From the NCBI GenBank assembly GCA_023136205.1, contig JAGLRQ010000113.1:1-7871 (forward strand): DNA of 7,871 nucleotides, read 5' to 3'. The notes below the pieces were generated by a model. The model saw nothing but the letters and a program-made list of their open reading frames with translations. It searched no databases and was not told where the DNA came from. Each line of letters opens with the position of its first letter. The first letter of the stretch is position 1. The position numbers and the translations under genes are program-made. This stretch comes from Candidatus Auribacterota bacterium. GTDB lineage: Bacteria > Auribacterota > UBA6266. Positions 1 through 6,771 of the stretch are shown one piece after another.

Positions 1-720
1 TCAAAAGAAATCAATCTTCCGTTTTTTAAGAGTTTAATCGAAAAACTTCCTTTTGTCACGGTTAAGTCCGCTGTTTCTATGGATGGTAAAATAGCGGCAA
101 AAACAGGAGATTCTAAATGGATTTCTTCAATTGAATCAAGAAAATACGGCCATTTATTAAGGAAAGAGGCGGATGCGGTTCTTACCGGGATTAATACTGT
201 AATCAAAGATGACCCCTTGTTTACCGTAAGACATGTTAAAAGTGCAAAGGATATTATAAGAGTAATTGTTGATACAAATTGCCGTTTGCCTTTGGAAAGC
301 AATATTGTGCGCAAGCGGCCGGAATTGACTTTGGTTGCTGTCGGGAAAGATATTGCAAAAACAAAAATCAAAAGATTGAAAGATCTTGGGCTGGAAGTCC
401 TGGAGGTTGATAGGGATAACAGCGGGAAGATCAACCTGAAAAAATTGCTCAAAATACTTTCAGCCAGGGGTATTAATAATATTCTCTGCGAATCCGGAGG
501 TTCTTTGACAGCATCTCTCTTTAAGAACAAGCTGGTTGACCGCATCGTGTTTTTTATATCCCCAATGATTATTGGGGGCAAAGATGCTCCTACAGCGGTG
601 GAAGGCAACGGGGTGAAGAAAATCGATTCCGCCGTAAAAATAGAAAACACAAAGATGAAAAAATCAGGGGGAGATTTTATGATTACCGGTGATGTTAACA
701 CGGAATGGAGGAATTTTTAA
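1..720 (+). CDS. ribD: Riboflavin biosynthesis protein RibD, C-terminal 5-amino-6-(5-phosphoribosylamino)uracil reductase domain; 5'-truncated by the window edge
   Basis: Frame 1 is open from base 1 (SKEINLPFFKSLIEKLPFVTVKSAVSMDGKIA...), so the ATG at 79 is internal. The PFVT-K-x-A-x-S-x-DGKIA motif, the SR..GH.LR...DAVL.G..TV..DDP.FTVR block and the CE.GG.L..SL block match the RibD reductase domain layout. Stop TAA at 718-720. Riboflavin synthase follows directly. Confidence 0.85.
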   Translation, partial: SKEINLPFFKSLIEKLPFVTVKSAVSMDGKIAAKTGDSKWISSIESRKYGHLLRKEADAVLTGINTVIKDDPLFTVRHVKSAKDIIRVIVDTNCRLPLESNIVRKRPELTLVAVGKDIAKTKIKRLKDLGLEVLEVDRDNSGKINLKKLLKILSARGINNILCESGGSLTASLFKNKLVDRIVFFISPMIIGGKDAPTAVEGNGVKKIDSAVKIENTKMKKSGGDFMITGDVNTEWRNF

Positions 721-722
721 GA

Positions 723-1358
723 ATGTTTACCGGGATAATAGAGTCTGTTGGCGTTATTTTAAGAATTGGAAAAAAATCAGGGAATCTGGAAATTGAAATA
801 GAGGCTTTGAATTTCCTTGATGATGTCGGGATTGGCGACAGTATATCTGTAGATGGAATCTGTTTAAGCGTTTGCAGTAAAACGGGTGAGTCTTTTTGCG
901 CAAACCTTCTTGCTGAAACCGTAAAAAGATCTACATTTGATTCGGCATGCGCAGGCCGAAAGGTAAACCTGGAAAAATCTTTGAAATCCGGATCGCGTTT
1001 CTCAGGGCACATAGTTACGGGACACGTTGACGAAACGGGAGAAATTCTGGAAGCAAAAAATTATTCCGGAGATATGGAGTTAAAAATAAAAATCCGTCCG
1101 GAGACTGTAAAATATATTGTGGAGAAAGGTTCTGTTGCTGTAAACGGTGTTAGCTTAACAGTGGTAAATGAGGGGAAAGATTATTTTACGGTTCGGCTGA
1201 TTCCTTTGACAGCGGGAAAAACGAATTTAGATAAAGTTCGAAAGGGTAACAAGGTAAACATAGAAGCCGATATTCTTGCTAAATATGCCGCTAAAGCATC
1301 CGGCAGGAATAAACCATCTAAAATAACCCTCAAGTTTCTCAAAGAAAAAGGTTTTTAA
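723..1358 (+). CDS. ribE: Riboflavin synthase (alpha chain)
   Basis: The canonical N-terminus MFTGIIE begins at ATG 723, with GGAGG at 708-712 about 10 nt upstream. The track start at 705 only adds MEEFLR. The duplicated lumazine-binding repeat layout is present (GDSISVDGICLSV... and GSVAVNGVSLTV...). It can be laid alongside E. coli riboflavin synthase from memory (GHxxxGHV, LIPxT, VNIExD). Confidence 0.9.
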   Translation: MFTGIIESVGVILRIGKKSGNLEIEIEALNFLDDVGIGDSISVDGICLSVCSKTGESFCANLLAETVKRSTFDSACAGRKVNLEKSLKSGSRFSGHIVTGHVDETGEILEAKNYSGDMELKIKIRPETVKYIVEKGSVAVNGVSLTVVNEGKDYFTVRLIPLTAGKTNLDKVRKGNKVNIEADILAKYAAKASGRNKPSKITLKFLKEKGF

Positions 1359-1375: not shown

Positions 1376-2224
1376 GTGTACCGCTTTGTAAAATCTTGCA
1401 TTGTATTTTTAATAGTTTTTCATGGAGTTTTTTTCTTTTCATCCTTTTCCCGCTCCTCGGATGATTTAAGAATTGTATGTCTTTCTCCCGCCGCAACAGA
1501 AATATTATTTGATCTGGGTGCGGATAAGTGGCTTGCGGGAATTACAAATGAGTGTGATTATCCTCCCGCGACAAAAGGTATCCCGAAAGTCGGAACCTTT
1601 TCGAATCCTTCCGTTGAATATATTCTCGAAAAGAATCCGGATATAGTAATAACTGACGGGCTCGAACAGCAGATCATGGCTTATAATCTGCGGAAATTCG
1701 GGATAAAAACCCTGACTATTTTTCCATCGGATTTTGAAGGCCTGTTTGACGCGTATATTAAAATCGGAGATATATGCGGACTTAAAAGGGAAGCCCTTGA
1801 AAAGGTAAGGTTAATGAAAAATGATATTGGCCGGGTTCTTAAAAAAGTTAAACATCTTAAAAAAAAGCCTCAAGTATTTGTTGAGATCTGGAGTAAACCT
1901 TTGATAACAGCAGCAAAAGGTTCACACATAGATGAAGTTTTAAGGTTAGCAGGAGGAATTAATATTGCCTATAATTGCCCCCGTCCTTACAGTAGAGTCA
2001 GCCCCGAGCTTGTTATAATTTCTAATCCTGATATAATTGTTCTCGCCTATAAAGATGAAAGTAATATCGGTTTGAGGGAAGGCTGGCAGAATATTAATGC
2101 TGTTAAAAAGGGGTTTGTCTGCAATGACATCAATCCTGATTTTCTTGTAAGAGCCGGGCCCAGACTGATTGAGGGTCTGGAAAAACTGCGTAAACTTATA
2201 GAAAAATGGGATATGCAAAATTGA
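1376..2224 (+). CDS. btuF: Periplasmic substrate-binding protein of a BtuF/FecB-type (TroA-like cluster A) ABC importer; most resembles cobalamin-binding BtuF
   Basis: GTG start with AAGGG 7 nt upstream and a hydrophobic signal peptide. RIVCLSPAATEILFDLGA..LAGIT..CDYPP, KP.VFVEIWSKPLITAAKGSHIDEVLRLAGG.N, SPE.VI..NPDIIV and R.GPRLIEGLE..R match the BtuF layout as I recall it from E. coli. Aromatic residues (VGTF, RPYSRVS) sit where E. coli BtuF has its corrin-stacking Trp residues. Substrate assignment is an inference; an iron-siderophore or heme substrate is not excluded. Confidence 0.72.
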   Translation: MYRFVKSCIVFLIVFHGVFFFSSFSRSSDDLRIVCLSPAATEILFDLGADKWLAGITNECDYPPATKGIPKVGTFSNPSVEYILEKNPDIVITDGLEQQIMAYNLRKFGIKTLTIFPSDFEGLFDAYIKIGDICGLKREALEKVRLMKNDIGRVLKKVKHLKKKPQVFVEIWSKPLITAAKGSHIDEVLRLAGGINIAYNCPRPYSRVSPELVIISNPDIIVLAYKDESNIGLREGWQNINAVKKGFVCNDINPDFLVRAGPRLIEGLEKLRKLIEKWDMQN

Positions 2225-3201
2225 AGAAAATAACAGTGATATTATTAGTTGCTCTTGTAACAGCGGGTTTGTTCATGACATCCCTTCTTGTGGGCCCCGC
2301 GGATATTAATATTGGTAATATTTTTGATTATTTTTGCGGGAAATATAACCCGGTTATTCACCTGAGGTTTATGAGAGCCTGTATGGCAGTGATATCCGCT
2401 GCCGGCCTTTCAGCAGCCGGGGTATTTTTGCAGGGGTTGTTGCGAAATCCTCTTGCCGGCCCGTATATCCTCGGCATATCCGCCGGCTCAGCAATCGGCG
2501 CGGTAGGTGCAATTTGCTGCGGGCTCGGCACAGCTTTTATATTGCTTCCAGTACCTATGGTATGCGCGTTTATTGGCGCAATCATTACAATAATTGTTGT
2601 TTACAGGTTAGCTCTTAAAGACGGAAATCTGTCTGTTCAGAATCTAATACTTGCCGGAATTGCAGTTAATTCTCTACTTTCCAGCGTATTGCTTTTTGCA
2701 ATATACTCTTCAAAAAATGAAGCGATAAACGGCATAATCTGGTGGCTGCTCGGAAGTTTACAGGTTTTTGATATTAGGATAGTTTTGTTTTCCGGGGGTA
2801 TTGTTTCGGCTTCTATTTTACTTGCTATCCCTTTAACAAAGGAATTAAATGCTGTTTCCATAGGTGATGACCTGGCAACATATGTCGGGATAAAAGTTGA
2901 ATGGATTAAAACCATTTTCTTTGTTCTTTCAGGAATTATGACAGCTGCTGTTGTGTCCAGTGTTGGAATGATCGGGTTTGTCGGACTTGTTATTCCTCAT
3001 ATAACAAGGAAGTTGTTCGGCCCTGATATCAGGGTTCTTTTACCGGCATCTGTAGTAATCGGTTCAGGATTTCTGCTTATTGCCGACATGCTTTGTAGAA
3101 TTCTCTTTATTCCGGCCGAATTGCCAATAGGAATTGTAACATCTCTGGTAGGGGCGCCGTTTTTTATTTTTATCCTGGTCATCACGAGGAAAGGTTCATG
3201 A
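2206..3201 (+). CDS. FecCD/BtuC-family ABC transporter permease (iron-chelate/cobalamin uptake type)
   Basis: 331 aa, highly hydrophobic and multi-spanning, with Gly/Ala-rich helices typical of FecCD permeases (LRNPLAGPYILGISAGSAIGA, GMIGFVGLVIPHI.R, LP.GIVTSL.GAPFFI.IL). Overlaps the PBP stop by 19 nt. An alternative TTG start at 2221 would give a TTGA-type overlap. The end overlaps the ATPase start (ATGA at 3198-3201). Confidence 0.85.
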   Translation: MGYAKLKKITVILLVALVTAGLFMTSLLVGPADINIGNIFDYFCGKYNPVIHLRFMRACMAVISAAGLSAAGVFLQGLLRNPLAGPYILGISAGSAIGAVGAICCGLGTAFILLPVPMVCAFIGAIITIIVVYRLALKDGNLSVQNLILAGIAVNSLLSSVLLFAIYSSKNEAINGIIWWLLGSLQVFDIRIVLFSGGIVSASILLAIPLTKELNAVSIGDDLATYVGIKVEWIKTIFFVLSGIMTAAVVSSVGMIGFVGLVIPHITRKLFGPDIRVLLPASVVIGSGFLLIADMLCRILFIPAELPIGIVTSLVGAPFFIFILVITRKGS

Positions 3202-3965
3202 AAAATAATATTCTTGAATTAAAAGATGTAACGGCGGGATATGGTTCCAAAGAGGTTCTTAAAAACATTTCCTTCTTCGTAAAAGAAGGGTCTTTTACCG
3301 GTATAATCGGGCCAAACGGTTCGGGAAAATCAACTCTTGTTAAAACTCTGGGGAACTTTTTAAAACCAGACAGGGGAATCATTTATTACCGCGAAACCGA
3401 TGTCAGGAATATAACTCATAAAGAATATGCGAAGAAAATCACTGTAGTTCCTCAGGAAACAAAAACTGTTTTTGACTATACTGTCAGGGATTTTGTAACT
3501 ATGGGCAGGTATCCATATACGGGATTCTGGGGCACACTGTCAAAAGAAGACACAAAAGAAATCGAAGAAGTTCTATTTACAACTGGGCTTAATAAGTGTT
3601 GCGCGAAAAACATTAATGAAATGAGCGGGGGAGAAAAGCAGATGGTTTTTCTCGCAAGAGCCCTCTGTCAAAAAACTTCTCTGATAGTCCTTGATGAGCC
3701 GCTAACCTTTCTTGATATTAAACATCAAAAAATAATCATACACATCCTTGAAAAGTTCAACAAAGAAAAAGCCCTTACAGTACTGATGGTTGTACATGAT
3801 ATAAATACAGTTTTGAAACACTGTACCGATACAATAATTCTGAATGAAGGAAGTGTTTACGCTTCGGGAAACACAGAGGCAACAGTAAACAAAGAAACAA
3901 TCCGCGAGATATTTGAAACAGAAGTTGAATTTGTTAAATGCGGAGACAAAAACTTATTTTTCTGA
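3198..3965 (+). CDS. ABC transporter ATP-binding protein, BtuD/FepC/FhuC family
   Basis: Walker A GPNGSGKST, signature MSGGEKQ, Walker B LIVLDEP and H-loop VVHDIN. AGGAAAGG RBS upstream. ATGA start/stop overlap with the permease. Confidence 0.9.
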   Translation: MKNNILELKDVTAGYGSKEVLKNISFFVKEGSFTGIIGPNGSGKSTLVKTLGNFLKPDRGIIYYRETDVRNITHKEYAKKITVVPQETKTVFDYTVRDFVTMGRYPYTGFWGTLSKEDTKEIEEVLFTTGLNKCCAKNINEMSGGEKQMVFLARALCQKTSLIVLDEPLTFLDIKHQKIIIHILEKFNKEKALTVLMVVHDINTVLKHCTDTIILNEGSVYASGNTEATVNKETIREIFETEVEFVKCGDKNLFF

Positions 3966-3971
3966 TCATGT

Positions 3972-4631
3972 CTATTGTTTTATCTCAAAAACAATATTAG
4001 TGTTAAACCCTATTTCAGATTGGCCTATTTCTTTTGGAAATTTTGGAAAGAGTTTCGAAGCTTCTTTTAATACTGCTATAGCGGCGGGGGAAAATACTTC
4101 GTCAGTTGTTCTAATTACCTCAATAAAAGTTACTCTTCCTTTTTTGTTTAAATAAAAGAGTATTGTTACTTCTCCTGATACAAGCTCTCGTTTTTTTGCT
4201 TCTTCAGGAAAGTAATCTAAGGTAATTTCTGCTATAATACTATTCAATTGTTTTTGGTACTGTCTAACAAGTACAATCTGTGATGCAAATTCTTTTTTGG
4301 CTTTTTCAAGGGTTTTTCTTGATTCTTCTTTTTCAACTTCTTTTTCAGGCTGAGGTTTAATGATTTTTTTTGCCTGGGCTTTTTTTATCTGTTCCTTCTT
4401 TTTATCCTTGTTTTTTACATGAACAGAGGATGTTATTTTTGGTATTTTGATTTGCTCGGGCTGAAGCTCCGGAAATTGCGCGTAATAAAGAAGAACTTCA
4501 AGGTATTTATCCTTTTTGTTCTTAGATGCAAGCATTCTTAAAGTCGGCGATGCGCCCAGTACTATCAGGTGAATCGAGATCGAAATAAAAAATGAAAGCA
4601 ATAATAATCTATTTCTGAAAAAAGCTGCCAT
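3972..4631 (-). CDS. tonB: TonB-family energy transducer (N-terminal anchor with SxxxH motif, Lys/Glu-rich linker, TonB_C domain)
   Basis: The anchor RLLLLSFFISISIHLIVLG carries S-I-S-I-H, matching the E. coli TonB S-V-C-I-H (SxxxH) motif. The C-terminus YFPEEAKKRELVSGEVTILFYLNKKGRVTFIEVIRTTDEVFSPAAIAVLKEASKLFPKFP fits the TonB_C pattern (YP..A....G.V.v.F.i...G.v........s.....aA..a......P.P). I prefer the ATG at 4631 (purine-rich AGAGAGA upstream) over the track's GTG at 4703, which lacks any SD. That start would add a 24-aa non-TonB-like extension through a GC-rich hairpin. Confidence 0.8.
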   Translation of the reverse strand: MAAFFRNRLLLLSFFISISIHLIVLGASPTLRMLASKNKKDKYLEVLLYYAQFPELQPEQIKIPKITSSVHVKNKDKKKEQIKKAQAKKIIKPQPEKEVEKEESRKTLEKAKKEFASQIVLVRQYQKQLNSIIAEITLDYFPEEAKKRELVSGEVTILFYLNKKGRVTFIEVIRTTDEVFSPAAIAVLKEASKLFPKFPKEIGQSEIGFNTNIVFEIKQ

Positions 4632-4803
4632 AATTTCTCTCTTTGTGAATCGTATAAAAGCCGTATGTAGTCCCCTCAGGGGAGGCTGCGCTACGCTTCG
4701 CACTATCTTGTGAATTGATTAAATACTACACAACAAGTGTGCTATTAACAAGTGTCAAATATATTAATATCGAAATTTTAATAAAATTTAACTGAATAAA
4801 TTC

Positions 4804-4831
4804 TTGACATAACAGAAAAAGAGTATAAAAT
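4804..4831 (+). promoter_or_regulatory. Sigma70-like promoter of the riboswitch-controlled operon (TTGACA-16 nt-TAAAAT)
   Basis: Perfect -35 TTGACA at 4804-4809. -10 TAAAAT at 4826-4831 after a 16-nt spacer. It lies about 30 nt upstream of the riboswitch aptamer. Confidence 0.6.
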
Positions 4832-4861
4832 GATGCCGACTTTTGTTCTTTAATTTTTAGT

Positions 4862-4960
4862 TATGGTTTTCAGTGTCAGGGAAATCCCGTGAGAGCCGGG
4901 AGCTGGGCCGCAGCTGTAATCGGTGTAAAACCGTAAGCCAGAATACCTGTCTGAAAAAAA
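4862..4960 (+). promoter_or_regulatory. Cobalamin (B12) riboswitch aptamer, Rfam RF00174-like
   Basis: B12 box AAGCCAGAATACCTGTCT at 4935-4952 matches the consensus rAGYCMGgAgaCCkGCcd at 15 of 18 positions. Core cAGGGAAatCCCGTGAGAGCCGGGAGCTGGGCCGCAGCTGTAA at 4877-4919 parallels the conserved AGGGAA...GGTG.(A)A.CC...GC.GC..CTGTAA layout. Closing helices are TTTTCAG(4867-4873)/CTGAAAA(4951-4957) and CAGG(4877-4880)/CCTG(4946-4949). There is a peripheral hairpin CGGT-gtaaa-ACCG at 4921-4933. Boundaries are approximate. Confidence 0.88.
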
Positions 4961-4994
4961 TTTAATCTTCTCCGGAACCGAGAAAAGACGAAGG

Positions 4995-5028
4995 CCCGTT
5001 CTCACAAAAAGGAGAAACGGGTTTTTTT
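4995..5028 (+). terminator. Intrinsic terminator forming the riboswitch expression platform (transcription attenuation)
   Basis: Stem CCCGTTCTC (4995-5003) pairs with GAGAAACGGG (5012-5021) with one bulged A, followed by T7 at 5022-5028. It lies between the aptamer and the RBS (AAGGAG 5053-5058) of the ORF starting at 5066. Confidence 0.8.
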
Positions 5029-5065
5029 GTTGTCTGAAACCGGAGGCAACGAAAGGAGCAGTTAG

Positions 5066-5983
5066 ATGTGTAAGTTTTTATTGAGCAGTTTTTTGGTTTT
5101 GTTGTGTGTATCGCCTCTTGCTTTTTCAGAGGTAGCTTCATGGACTGAGGATTTCAGCAGCCCTTCCGGATGGACATACGAAGGGGAAACAGGGACTCAG
5201 CTTTTTACCCATAATGGGACTCAGGGCAATGTTAACGCGCTATGGAAATCAGATAAGAGCACCAGCCGCTATTACAAGAGCTTGGGCGGAAGTATAACAG
5301 AATCAAGTTCTTTCTCTTTCGGGTGTGATTTACAGATAAACGATCTGGTACAGAACCCTTGGGGTATGCAAATTGGTTTTGGCCTTTTTAATACCGCTAA
5401 TACCGGTGATAACAGGGTAGGTTATTATGACGGAGACTGGGGTTACCATAGTGGAAATACTATAAATACATTTGAATTAAGTTATTTCCCTTATCAAGAC
5501 GGATGGGGAGGGCCATGGTTTGGAGGAACCATAATGCCCGAGGTTGATAATGAGCCTGGCGAACCCGGGAATCAGGTCAAGATTGTTTATTCCGGCGAAA
5601 CTGTCACATATAAAACTGTGGGATTTGACGAAGGGGCACTCCCTTACGATGCTTGGCTGTACACAGAAGCTACATACGACGGAAGCTCTAAAGAAGCGCT
5701 TTTTAGCATATATACCAACCAAGAAAAAACAACACTTCTATCTGTAAACGGACAGATAGCTCAGTCTTCCTTTATTTATACCGGAGACGCTTTCTCGGTA
5801 GATGCTTTAGGGTTTTTTAGTTATTACGATTATCTGGACAGTACCCCTGTTTCTCCTTCACTTAGTGGTGTTGGCATTTTTGATAATGCTTACTTTAATG
5901 TGGTTCCGGAACCTTCCAGTTGGATATGCTTTACCTTAGGGCTGGTTTCACTATGGTGTTTTAAAAGAAAGAAAACCGCATGA
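5066..5983 (+). CDS. Secreted PEP-CTERM-anchored protein of unknown function, aromatic/Gly-rich; a beta-sandwich fold is a guess
   Basis: AAGGAG RBS 7 nt upstream. Signal peptide MCKFLLSSFLVLLCVSPLAFS|EV. The C-terminal sorting signal VPEP-SSWICFTLGLVSLWCF-KRKK (nt 5903-5980) is a textbook PEP-CTERM: motif, TM helix, basic tail. The mature region is rich in W/Y/G (GDWGYHSG, DGWGGPWFGG). It starts W.EDF and ends IFDNAYF, reminiscent of LamG/concanavalin-like modules. I recognise no characterised family. Confidence 0.8.
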   Translation: MCKFLLSSFLVLLCVSPLAFSEVASWTEDFSSPSGWTYEGETGTQLFTHNGTQGNVNALWKSDKSTSRYYKSLGGSITESSSFSFGCDLQINDLVQNPWGMQIGFGLFNTANTGDNRVGYYDGDWGYHSGNTINTFELSYFPYQDGWGGPWFGGTIMPEVDNEPGEPGNQVKIVYSGETVTYKTVGFDEGALPYDAWLYTEATYDGSSKEALFSIYTNQEKTTLLSVNGQIAQSSFIYTGDAFSVDALGFFSYYDYLDSTPVSPSLSGVGIFDNAYFNVVPEPSSWICFTLGLVSLWCFKRKKTA

Positions 5984-6771
5984 AAAAAAATATCCCGTTA
6001 GAGATTAAAGAAAAAAATTGTGTTTTATCATCTCTAACGGGATTTACATTAATTGAATTACTGGTTGTTATCGCGATAGCCTCTCTCATGATATCTTTTC
6101 TCCTGCCCGCGTTGCTGGAGGCAAAAGAAACAGCCAAAAAATGTGTCTGTATTTCTAATTTAAAACAGTTATATCTTGCGACAAGCCTTTACCTTCAGGA
6201 TAACGATGATGTTTTTTTCCCGCATTACGTCAAAAAAGGAGCAGATAGGTTGTGGTGGTTTGGCTATGAACCAAATTTCAATACCGGTATACCTGAAGGA
6301 AGCAGAGAAATTTATCTGACAAAGTCTTTTTTATACCCCTACATAAGAAACATAGGGGGTATCGAAAAATGCCCTTCATTTAACTATAATGACCCCAAAT
6401 GGAAACCAAAATTTAAGTGTGCTACATATGGTTACGGTTATAATTCCCTGGGCCTCCAGGAGAAGAAGACCAGTGAAATAAAGGATTTAGCAAACACAGT
6501 ACTTTTTGCGGACTGCGCTCAGATTAATACATTCCAGGCACCGGCATCACCAACTAACCCCATGATTGAAGAGTTTTATTATATAAGCCCTTATCCGTTT
6601 GAAAAGCTGATTCACTTCAGGCACAATGGTTTGGCAAATGTCCTTTTCTGTGACGGCCACATTGACGCTATGAGACCTTTTCCCGGAACTGAAGATCCAA
6701 AAGGAAAGCAAATCGGACACATAGTCGGCAGAATCAACCCACCCGCGGATTTCTCCATGTTTAATTTATAG
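5980..6771 (+). CDS. Prepilin-type N-terminal cleavage/methylation domain protein with H-X9-DG motif (DUF1559-type pseudopilin-like protein)
   Basis: Leader MKKNIPLEIKEKNCVLSSLTG, then FTLIELLVVIAIASLM: a class III signal with G|F cleavage and Glu at +5. The NLKQLYLATSLYLQDNDD block is typical of DUF1559. HNGLANVLFCDG at nt 6622-6657 is an exact H-X9-DG. Its ATG overlaps the upstream stop (ATGA at 5980-5983), implying translational coupling. Confidence 0.85.
   Translation: MKKNIPLEIKEKNCVLSSLTGFTLIELLVVIAIASLMISFLLPALLEAKETAKKCVCISNLKQLYLATSLYLQDNDDVFFPHYVKKGADRLWWFGYEPNFNTGIPEGSREIYLTKSFLYPYIRNIGGIEKCPSFNYNDPKWKPKFKCATYGYGYNSLGLQEKKTSEIKDLANTVLFADCAQINTFQAPASPTNPMIEEFYYISPYPFEKLIHFRHNGLANVLFCDGHIDAMRPFPGTEDPKGKQIGHIVGRINPPADFSMFNL

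Follow-up and report, generated by a model that had tools for sequence, protein, structure and literature searches.

A riboswitch-controlled pair of PEP-CTERM and pilin-like genes at the btuB position of a receptor-less Auribacterota family: a candidate corrinoid acquisition module

How does a diderm bacterium which depends on vitamin B12 bring it across the outer membrane if it has no receptor for it? Ordinary porins do not admit a molecule as large as B12 and, to our knowledge, every well-studied diderm imports it via BtuB with TonB. The question is raised by a stretch of DNA of 7,871 nucleotides (the window), which is the entire contig C17 (JAGLRQ010000113.1) of G000, a metagenome-assembled genome (MAG) of Candidatus Auribacterota (1.76 Mb, 92.65% complete). 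The window encodes a BtuFCD-like importer, a TonB-family protein and a cobalamin riboswitch, and the riboswitch is followed by two genes, encoding a PEP-CTERM protein and a pilin-like protein with an H-X9-DG motif. A previous sequence-only reading of this locus had remarked that no BtuB-type receptor is encoded here and that the riboswitch operon occupies its slot, and had offered two options: that the receptor is encoded elsewhere, or that the outer-membrane step uses a different mechanism built from the two proteins. In our profile and covariance-model searches the importer, the TonB gene, the riboswitch and the gene pair were all recovered where that reading had placed them. A close homologue is labelled Candidatus Aureabacteria, now Candidatus Auribacterota, of the Planctomycetota, Verrucomicrobiota and Chlamydiota (PVC) group.

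We found no receptor, either at the locus or elsewhere in the genome. A BtuB-type receptor has about 600 amino acids or more and a 22-strand barrel, while the two riboswitch-controlled proteins have 305 and 263 amino acids, far too short for it as the sequence-only reading had said, and contain neither Plug nor barrel domains. A profile search of the whole G000 genome returned no Plug and no TonB_dep_Rec barrel domain. We compared G000 with five relatives, the six MAGs representing two genera of one family. The five relatives had no Plug domain either, giving 0 of 6 family genomes, including one relative which is 96% complete with a contig of 1.99 Mb. The option of a receptor encoded elsewhere thus found no candidate in six genomes. 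Among 79 Auribacterota genomes, Plug was found in 46, with between 1 and 17 genes in each. Neither Plug nor a cobalamin riboswitch was found in any of the nine genomes of the Auribacterota family f4.

The riboswitch itself was clearly identified. Its aptamer (RF00174) lies on the forward strand at positions 4847–4968, scores 47.5 bits (gathering score 31.5; E = 1.1e-9), covers model positions 1–189 and is of the short form without the long peripheral extension. Upstream on the same strand is a promoter-like site (4804–4831; TTGACA, 16 nt, TAAAAT), a consensus match only, which agrees at 11 of 12 positions. An intrinsic terminator begins 25 nt after the aptamer (approximately 4993–5028, forward strand) and consists of a GC-rich hairpin with U7 (fold −17.5 kcal/mol, z = −3.0); a simple terminator scan missed it due to a bulge and folding detected it. 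This terminator platform implies a predicted OFF switch, with the genes probably repressed when B12 is bound. A search for further RF00174 copies in G000 found none besides that of the window, and no second copy turned up in the rest of the family. Because 12 open reading frames (ORFs) in G000 contain B12-binding domains yet searches of five family genomes detected neither CbiC nor CobS nor BtuR, import of B12 appears to be needed and, judging from this gene content, the family is dependent on imported B12.

The gene order was next compared within the phylum. Both genera of the family have the order btuFCD, tonB, riboswitch, PEP-CTERM gene and H-X9-DG gene, so that the synteny is conserved in relatives. 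In the second genus the riboswitch of the cassette has diverged (L007:9772–9866; also in G002 and G003), with 25–30 bits to RF00174 and 30.1 bits to the AdoCbl-II model. Elsewhere in the phylum, at least 18 genomes have an RF00174 immediately preceding a Plug gene. Two receptor-bearing loci have the order riboswitch, TonB-dependent receptor, tonB, btuF, btuD and btuC, and three more have riboswitch, small membrane protein, TonB-dependent receptor and a short gene, which is tonB in two of them; tonB follows btuB in L075, L076, L077 and L079. Because receptor-bearing loci are arranged in this way, we read the window as a btuB-less operon: it looks like the ancestral operon minus btuB, in which tonB and btuFCD would have been kept and the riboswitch would now control a two-gene cassette. 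The suggestion that the riboswitch operon occupies the receptor slot is therefore backed by the riboswitch-btuB-tonB-btuFDC operons of receptor-bearing families.

Since the sole B12 switch of a B12-dependent, receptor-less genome controls this pair, and does so at the former btuB position, we propose that the locus is a B12-repressed corrinoid acquisition module which functionally replaces BtuB. From the sequence comparisons made here we would put the probability of this at roughly 0.55. Riboswitch-repressed exported proteins in auxotrophs normally have acquisition functions.

The first gene of the pair (5066–5983, forward strand) encodes a PEP-CTERM protein of 305 aa, with 18.1 bits to TIGR02595 (cut-off 16) and 19.7 bits to the Pfam PEP-CTERM model, just under the cut-off of 20.7. 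It has a signal peptide, a VPEP motif, a hydrophobic helix and a KRKK tail, and two exosortases are encoded in G000, as would be expected for an exosortase substrate. A word-indexed search of a 5.8-billion-protein collection found only five close clusters, and 284 relatives were recovered when 1.84 billion representatives were searched with a profile. Most of these have approximately 300–330 aa, a terminal PEP-CTERM signal is present in most, and they have the motifs EDFxxDP, FGLxNSxTTGxDR, DYFPN and FxVDSFA in common. In 50 family members no Pfam family was found over the protein body. AlphaFold2 gave a mean predicted local distance difference test (pLDDT) value of 82.6 with an alignment of 50 sequences, against 45.7 with an alignment of five. 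The predicted fold is a legume-lectin/ConA-like beta-sandwich, matching peanut lectin with Z = 15.9 (204 residues aligned, root-mean-square deviation 3.3) and legume lectins with a Foldseek E of 1e-8; such a resemblance in fold does not establish function. Further close fold matches were unnamed Verrucomicrobiota clusters in the Atlas, and an Atlas feature search returned unnamed PVC clusters only. Membership of DUF4465 (PF14717) was considered and rejected, as hhalign against 11 DUF4465 proteins aligned the PEP-CTERM tail only and there was no Pfam match; DUF4465 structures were absent among the fold matches listed, which is uninformative on kinship. We regard the protein as a candidate corrinoid-binding surface component.

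This lectin-fold family made it possible to look at the cassette in distant genomes. We inspected 12 members with 24–29% identity to the window protein, originating from Verrucomicrobiota and unassigned metagenomes. A pilin-like gene (approximately 250 aa) was found directly downstream in 12 of 12, and RF00174 (53–98 bits) directly upstream in all 11 members whose contigs extend far enough in that direction. One cassette (L110) lies beside btuFCD-type genes and another (L109) beside cobS, cobT and cobC. It should be noted that the L109 contig (protein P0019) was deposited as the cyanobacterial culture Oscillatoria amoena and may derive from an associated bacterium. In a second sample of 301 genomes, whose label of Verrucomicrobiota rests on one named protein, the lectin-fold family was found full-length in 6 genomes, and it occurs in one family among the 79 Auribacterota genomes; it is rare and patchy. 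The cassette riboswitch is the sole RF00174 in 7 of 7 cassette-bearing Verrucomicrobiota genomes. These seven contain 0–5 Plug genes each (five genomes with 1–5 and two with none), none of which is riboswitch-linked.

The second gene of the pair (5980–6771, forward strand) encodes the pilin-like protein of 263 aa, and its start overlaps the stop of the PEP-CTERM gene by 4 nt (ATGA). It matches the prepilin models N_methyl (21.4 bits against a cut-off of 21.2) and TIGR02532 (22.3 against 16.3), contains the prepilin motif G|FTLIE with Glu at +5, and its N-terminal helix matches solved pilins and GspG with E down to 1e-12; for the head domain no solved relative was found. The literal H-X9-DG motif is present, with scores below the cut-offs for PF07596 (19.1 bits against 23.3) and TIGR04294 (16.4 against 19), and the orthologues in L099 and L110 match PF07596. 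G000 also encodes a Peptidase_A24 prepilin peptidase and six secretins (contigs C20, C29, C87, C144 and C15); four to six secretins each were found in the four relatives searched. There are about 20 prepilin-like ORFs in G000, and only on the window contig does a PEP-CTERM ORF adjoin one.

The pilin-like partners of the cassettes form one orthologous group, with a motif beyond generic DUF1559, QINT[FW]QAPASPxNPM[IL]EE[FW]Y. We found the same partner in cassettes whose first gene encodes a DUF4465 protein: these partners score 294–307 bits against a hidden Markov model of the group, compared to 35–101 bits for the DUF1559 paralogues of G000, have 47–55% identity to the window partner and contain the same motif. 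The partner is present in 15 of the 301 Verrucomicrobiota genomes, with one copy each. In 14 of 14 loci read, its upstream neighbour is a PEP-CTERM protein: lectin-fold in 6, DUF4465 in 3, weakly DUF4465-like in 1 and of other kinds in 4. At the fifteenth locus (G100) a DUF4465 gene is adjacent, the PEP-CTERM tail and riboswitch being outside this reading. A riboswitch was found at no fewer than 10 of the 15 partner loci. On this comparison the pilin-like protein is the putative constant part of the cassette and the exosortase-sorted beta-sandwich protein its exchangeable part. DUF4465 (BtuJ-type) proteins bind B12 experimentally, via loops of an augmented beta-jellyroll (PMC13398666). The proposal that the outer-membrane step uses a mechanism built from the two proteins is thus supported by the absence of a receptor, by synteny and by riboswitch control in distant genomes, and genome comparison suggests that the two proteins may carry B12 across the outer membrane.

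Other arrangements behind cobalamin riboswitches were observed in the phylum. In one family, tandem cobalamin riboswitch pairs lie ahead of btuB (G042:C16:24586-25097 and similarly in G011, G020, G028, G036 and G053). In another receptor-less Auribacterota family (L068, L069 and L070), the riboswitch controls a protein of 300 aa which has a signal peptide and ends in an LPEP-plus-helix tail, followed by BtuR and a lamin-tail-domain protein of approximately 1,100 aa; these 300-aa PEP-CTERM-like proteins were ruled out as relatives of the window protein (hhalign probability 0.4%). In further receptor-less families (L067, L071, L073 and L074) the riboswitch controls a beta-propeller protein of 543–655 aa (PQQ-like) with a BtuF-like gene after it, or an 850-aa FG-GAP protein, arrangements which may be other non-BtuB solutions.

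The TonB-family protein is encoded on the reverse strand (3972–4631, in an ORF which extends to a GTG at 4703) and has 30.2 bits to TonB_C, against a cut-off of 24.6. A membrane anchor with S-x-x-x-H (SISIH in the predicted anchor) is followed by a Lys/Glu-rich spacer and the TonB_C domain. The proline-rich spacer is absent from this protein, and no TonB-dependent receptor client for it was found in G000. It does not appear to be decaying because it is conserved about as well as the neighbouring genes: identity to orthologues is 85% in the same genus and 47% in the other genus, compared to 93% and 49% for btuD. Orthology with the btuB-linked TonBs of the phylum was not demonstrable by BLAST (best E 0.16), the two being equivalent by position alone. 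ExbB homologues are present in G000, and a second TonB_C protein adjoins an ExbB homologue at G000 C135:2559-4083; the family has thus retained two TonB proteins together with three or four homologues of ExbB/MotA, with no known client receptor. A GC-rich inverted repeat was also seen at 4660–4700; it is part of the tonB leader and lies between the promoters of tonB and the riboswitch, which diverge.

The importer consists of a BtuF-like periplasmic binding protein (1376–2224; PF01497, Peripla_BP_2, 85.9 bits), a BtuC-like permease of the FecCD family (2206–3201; PF01032, 264.2 bits) and a BtuD-like ABC ATPase (3198–3965; PF00005, 112.2 bits), all on the forward strand. The three together in one operon are what is expected of the BtuFCD family. 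Among NCBIfam models, BtuF is the top match of the binding protein and two BtuC models are the top matches of the permease, while the ATPase has 195–212 bits to FecE, heme and corrinoid ATPase models. Against solved chains, the binding protein matches BtuF with 65–72 bits and, highest of all, an "iron-binding protein" with 87 bits. A tblastn search of G000 with the window permease returned the self match only, with no second FecCD-family permease.

The importer closes a run of riboflavin and housekeeping genes. In the window it is preceded by ribD, of which the contig end has left only the 3' part, and by ribE (together 1–1358, forward strand; RibD_C 175.6 bits, Lum_binding 149.5 bits), the ribE product matching the NCBIfam riboflavin synthase equivalog with 212.8 bits. 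The gap between ribE and btuF is 17 nt, without a terminator-like site between them. In the relative G004 (L007:326-8978) one strand contains an FMN riboswitch, ribBA, ribH, nusB, a PHP-domain gene, ftsY, ribD, ribE and btuFCD, with ribE and btuF overlapping, and the distant cassettes L097 and L110 also adjoin ribF. At the other end of the window, rpsU and a cupin gene lie downstream of the H-X9-DG gene.

How might such a module work? We suggest that btuB was lost from the ancestral btuB-tonB-btuFDC operon, which would leave the adjacent TonB as a positional remnant. At low B12 the terminator-type OFF switch would be relieved and the translationally coupled pair would be made. The lectin-fold protein, exported by Sec and sorted by exosortase, would be displayed at the surface and capture corrinoid, and the pilin-like protein would be cleaved by prepilin peptidase and mounted on a machine of the type II secretion system (T2SS) or type IV pilus type. 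Together the two would hand the corrinoid inward to BtuF, and the BtuFCD-type importer would perform the inner-membrane step. From the gene content and context described above we infer that corrinoid is bound and crosses the outer membrane in this way, and that TonB may have a role. The machinery for this model is available, because two exosortases, a prepilin peptidase and six secretins are encoded in G000. A stronger version, in which a pilus-type machine under one of the six secretins assembles the pilin-like protein and forms with the lectin-fold protein a receptor-free corrinoid route across the outer membrane, perhaps assisted by TonB, is tentative and we hold it with some doubt. Competence pseudopili take up DNA through a secretin, and we know of no precedent for vitamin uptake by a pilus-type machine.

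Several observations weigh against an acquisition module, and they should be set beside the other explanations of the locus. The family MAGs are incomplete (87–96%), and in all six of them a BtuB-type receptor could lie in the unassembled 4–13% or have diverged beyond what the Plug and barrel models detect. We consider this very improbable, as no Plug candidate was found in 6 of 6 genomes of two genera, one of them 96% complete with its 1.99 Mb contig, the same search detects 1–17 receptors each in 46 further Auribacterota genomes, and the only riboswitch is already accounted for by the gene pair. The importer, for its part, misses the NCBIfam equivalog cut-offs (BtuF 89.5 against 234, BtuC 218.7 against 461 and BtuD 122 against 281 bits), so that it is BtuFCD-like at the family level and B12 would be its substrate by context; it follows the rib genes and does not lie behind a cobalamin riboswitch. 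It might therefore import heme, a siderophore or another chelate, its adjacency to the riboswitch operon being due to chance or inherited synteny, and the FecE and heme models among the top matches of the ATPase and the "iron-binding protein" as top solved match of the binding protein agree with this. To this explanation we give little credence, since a genome which must import B12 has no second FecCD-type permease detected, importer homologues elsewhere in the phylum sit inside riboswitch-btuB operons, and btuFCD-type genes are also found near one distant cassette.

For the gene pair itself, it counts against a role in corrinoid acquisition that no characterised B12-binding protein is a homologue of either, that lectin-like folds more often bind carbohydrate, that the riboswitch of the second genus reaches only 25–30 bits, and that 4 of the 15 partner orthologues have no riboswitch at the gathering threshold. 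A riboswitch shows that genes respond to B12 and nothing more, and a lectin-like fold with a pilin-like partner has the usual parts of an adhesin, so the pair could be a B12-starvation response other than uptake, for example a lectin-tipped pilus attaching to B12-producing partners or surfaces. This seems improbable to us given that the same pilin orthologue elsewhere pairs with DUF4465, tested members of which bind B12 (PMC13398666), that cassettes adjoin btuFCD and cob genes, and that the cassette stands in place of btuB in Auribacterota. Alternatively, the role of the pair might end with capture or storage of corrinoid at the surface, as with BtuG, BtuH and BtuJ of Bacteroides, the pilin-like protein anchoring or displaying the binder, with an unrelated channel crossing the outer membrane. 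The riboswitch-controlled extracellular binders of Bacteroides are indeed transporter accessories (PMC13616437, PMC13398666), and five of the seven cassette-bearing Verrucomicrobiota genomes have 1–5 TonB-dependent receptors which could serve without a riboswitch. We nevertheless think it rather unlikely here, because this family, like two of the cassette-bearing Verrucomicrobiota genomes, is without any TonB-dependent receptor and no other candidate channel is tied to B12 by regulation or position. An acquisition module in place of BtuB remains the reading which we prefer.

In the literature searched we found nothing linking PEP-CTERM, DUF1559/H-X9-DG or pseudopilins to B12. What is new here is a family that has no receptor, the ancestral btuB-tonB-btuFDC architecture, the lectin-fold family and the finding that the partner is orthologous in the two kinds of cassette. 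Should the pair serve to capture or import corrinoid, it would represent a new vitamin uptake route and a new B12-binding scaffold, would provide the first testable role for the large uncharacterised DUF1559/H-X9-DG family, and would alter what the genomes of Verrucomicrobiota, Planctomycetota and related groups are taken to say about B12 auxotrophy and cross-feeding. If the pilus-machine version were true, a pilus-type machine would for the first time be seen to import a vitamin, and the very large DUF1559 family of the PVC group would gain its first function.

The locus appears to be far from every described B12 uptake system, its function being proposed from comparative genomics. It resembles the canonical BtuB/TonB-ExbBD/BtuFCD system (E. 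coli type, and L076 and L077 in this phylum) in its importer, its TonB gene, the ExbB homologues and an OFF riboswitch on an outer-envelope component; however, it has no TonB-dependent receptor, its riboswitch controls two non-barrel proteins and its importer is outside riboswitch control. In the cobamide relay of Bacteroides thetaiotaomicron, BtuB works with BtuG, BtuH and BtuJ (DUF4465) (PMC13616437, PMC13398666). As there, the locus has riboswitch-controlled, exported and surface-attached beta-rich proteins of a B12 auxotroph, but the relay is built on lipid anchors and BtuB, whereas the window has PEP-CTERM/exosortase attachment and a pilin-like partner, with no BtuB, no BtuG-type propeller and, by profile, no DUF4465 domain. 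With T2SS pseudopilins, type IV pilins and competence pseudopili the pilin-like protein shares the prepilin motif and the hydrophobic N-terminal helix, and prepilin peptidase and secretins are present in the genome; it differs in a head domain without a solved relative and in having no assembly genes beside it. The PVC cassettes of a DUF4465 PEP-CTERM protein and a DUF1559 pseudopilin (L165, L169 and L185) have in common with the window the orthologous partner, PEP-CTERM sorting and riboswitch control. The window differs from them in that its first gene belongs to another, unnamed lectin-like family and that the cassette stands at a former btuB locus in a receptor-less lineage.

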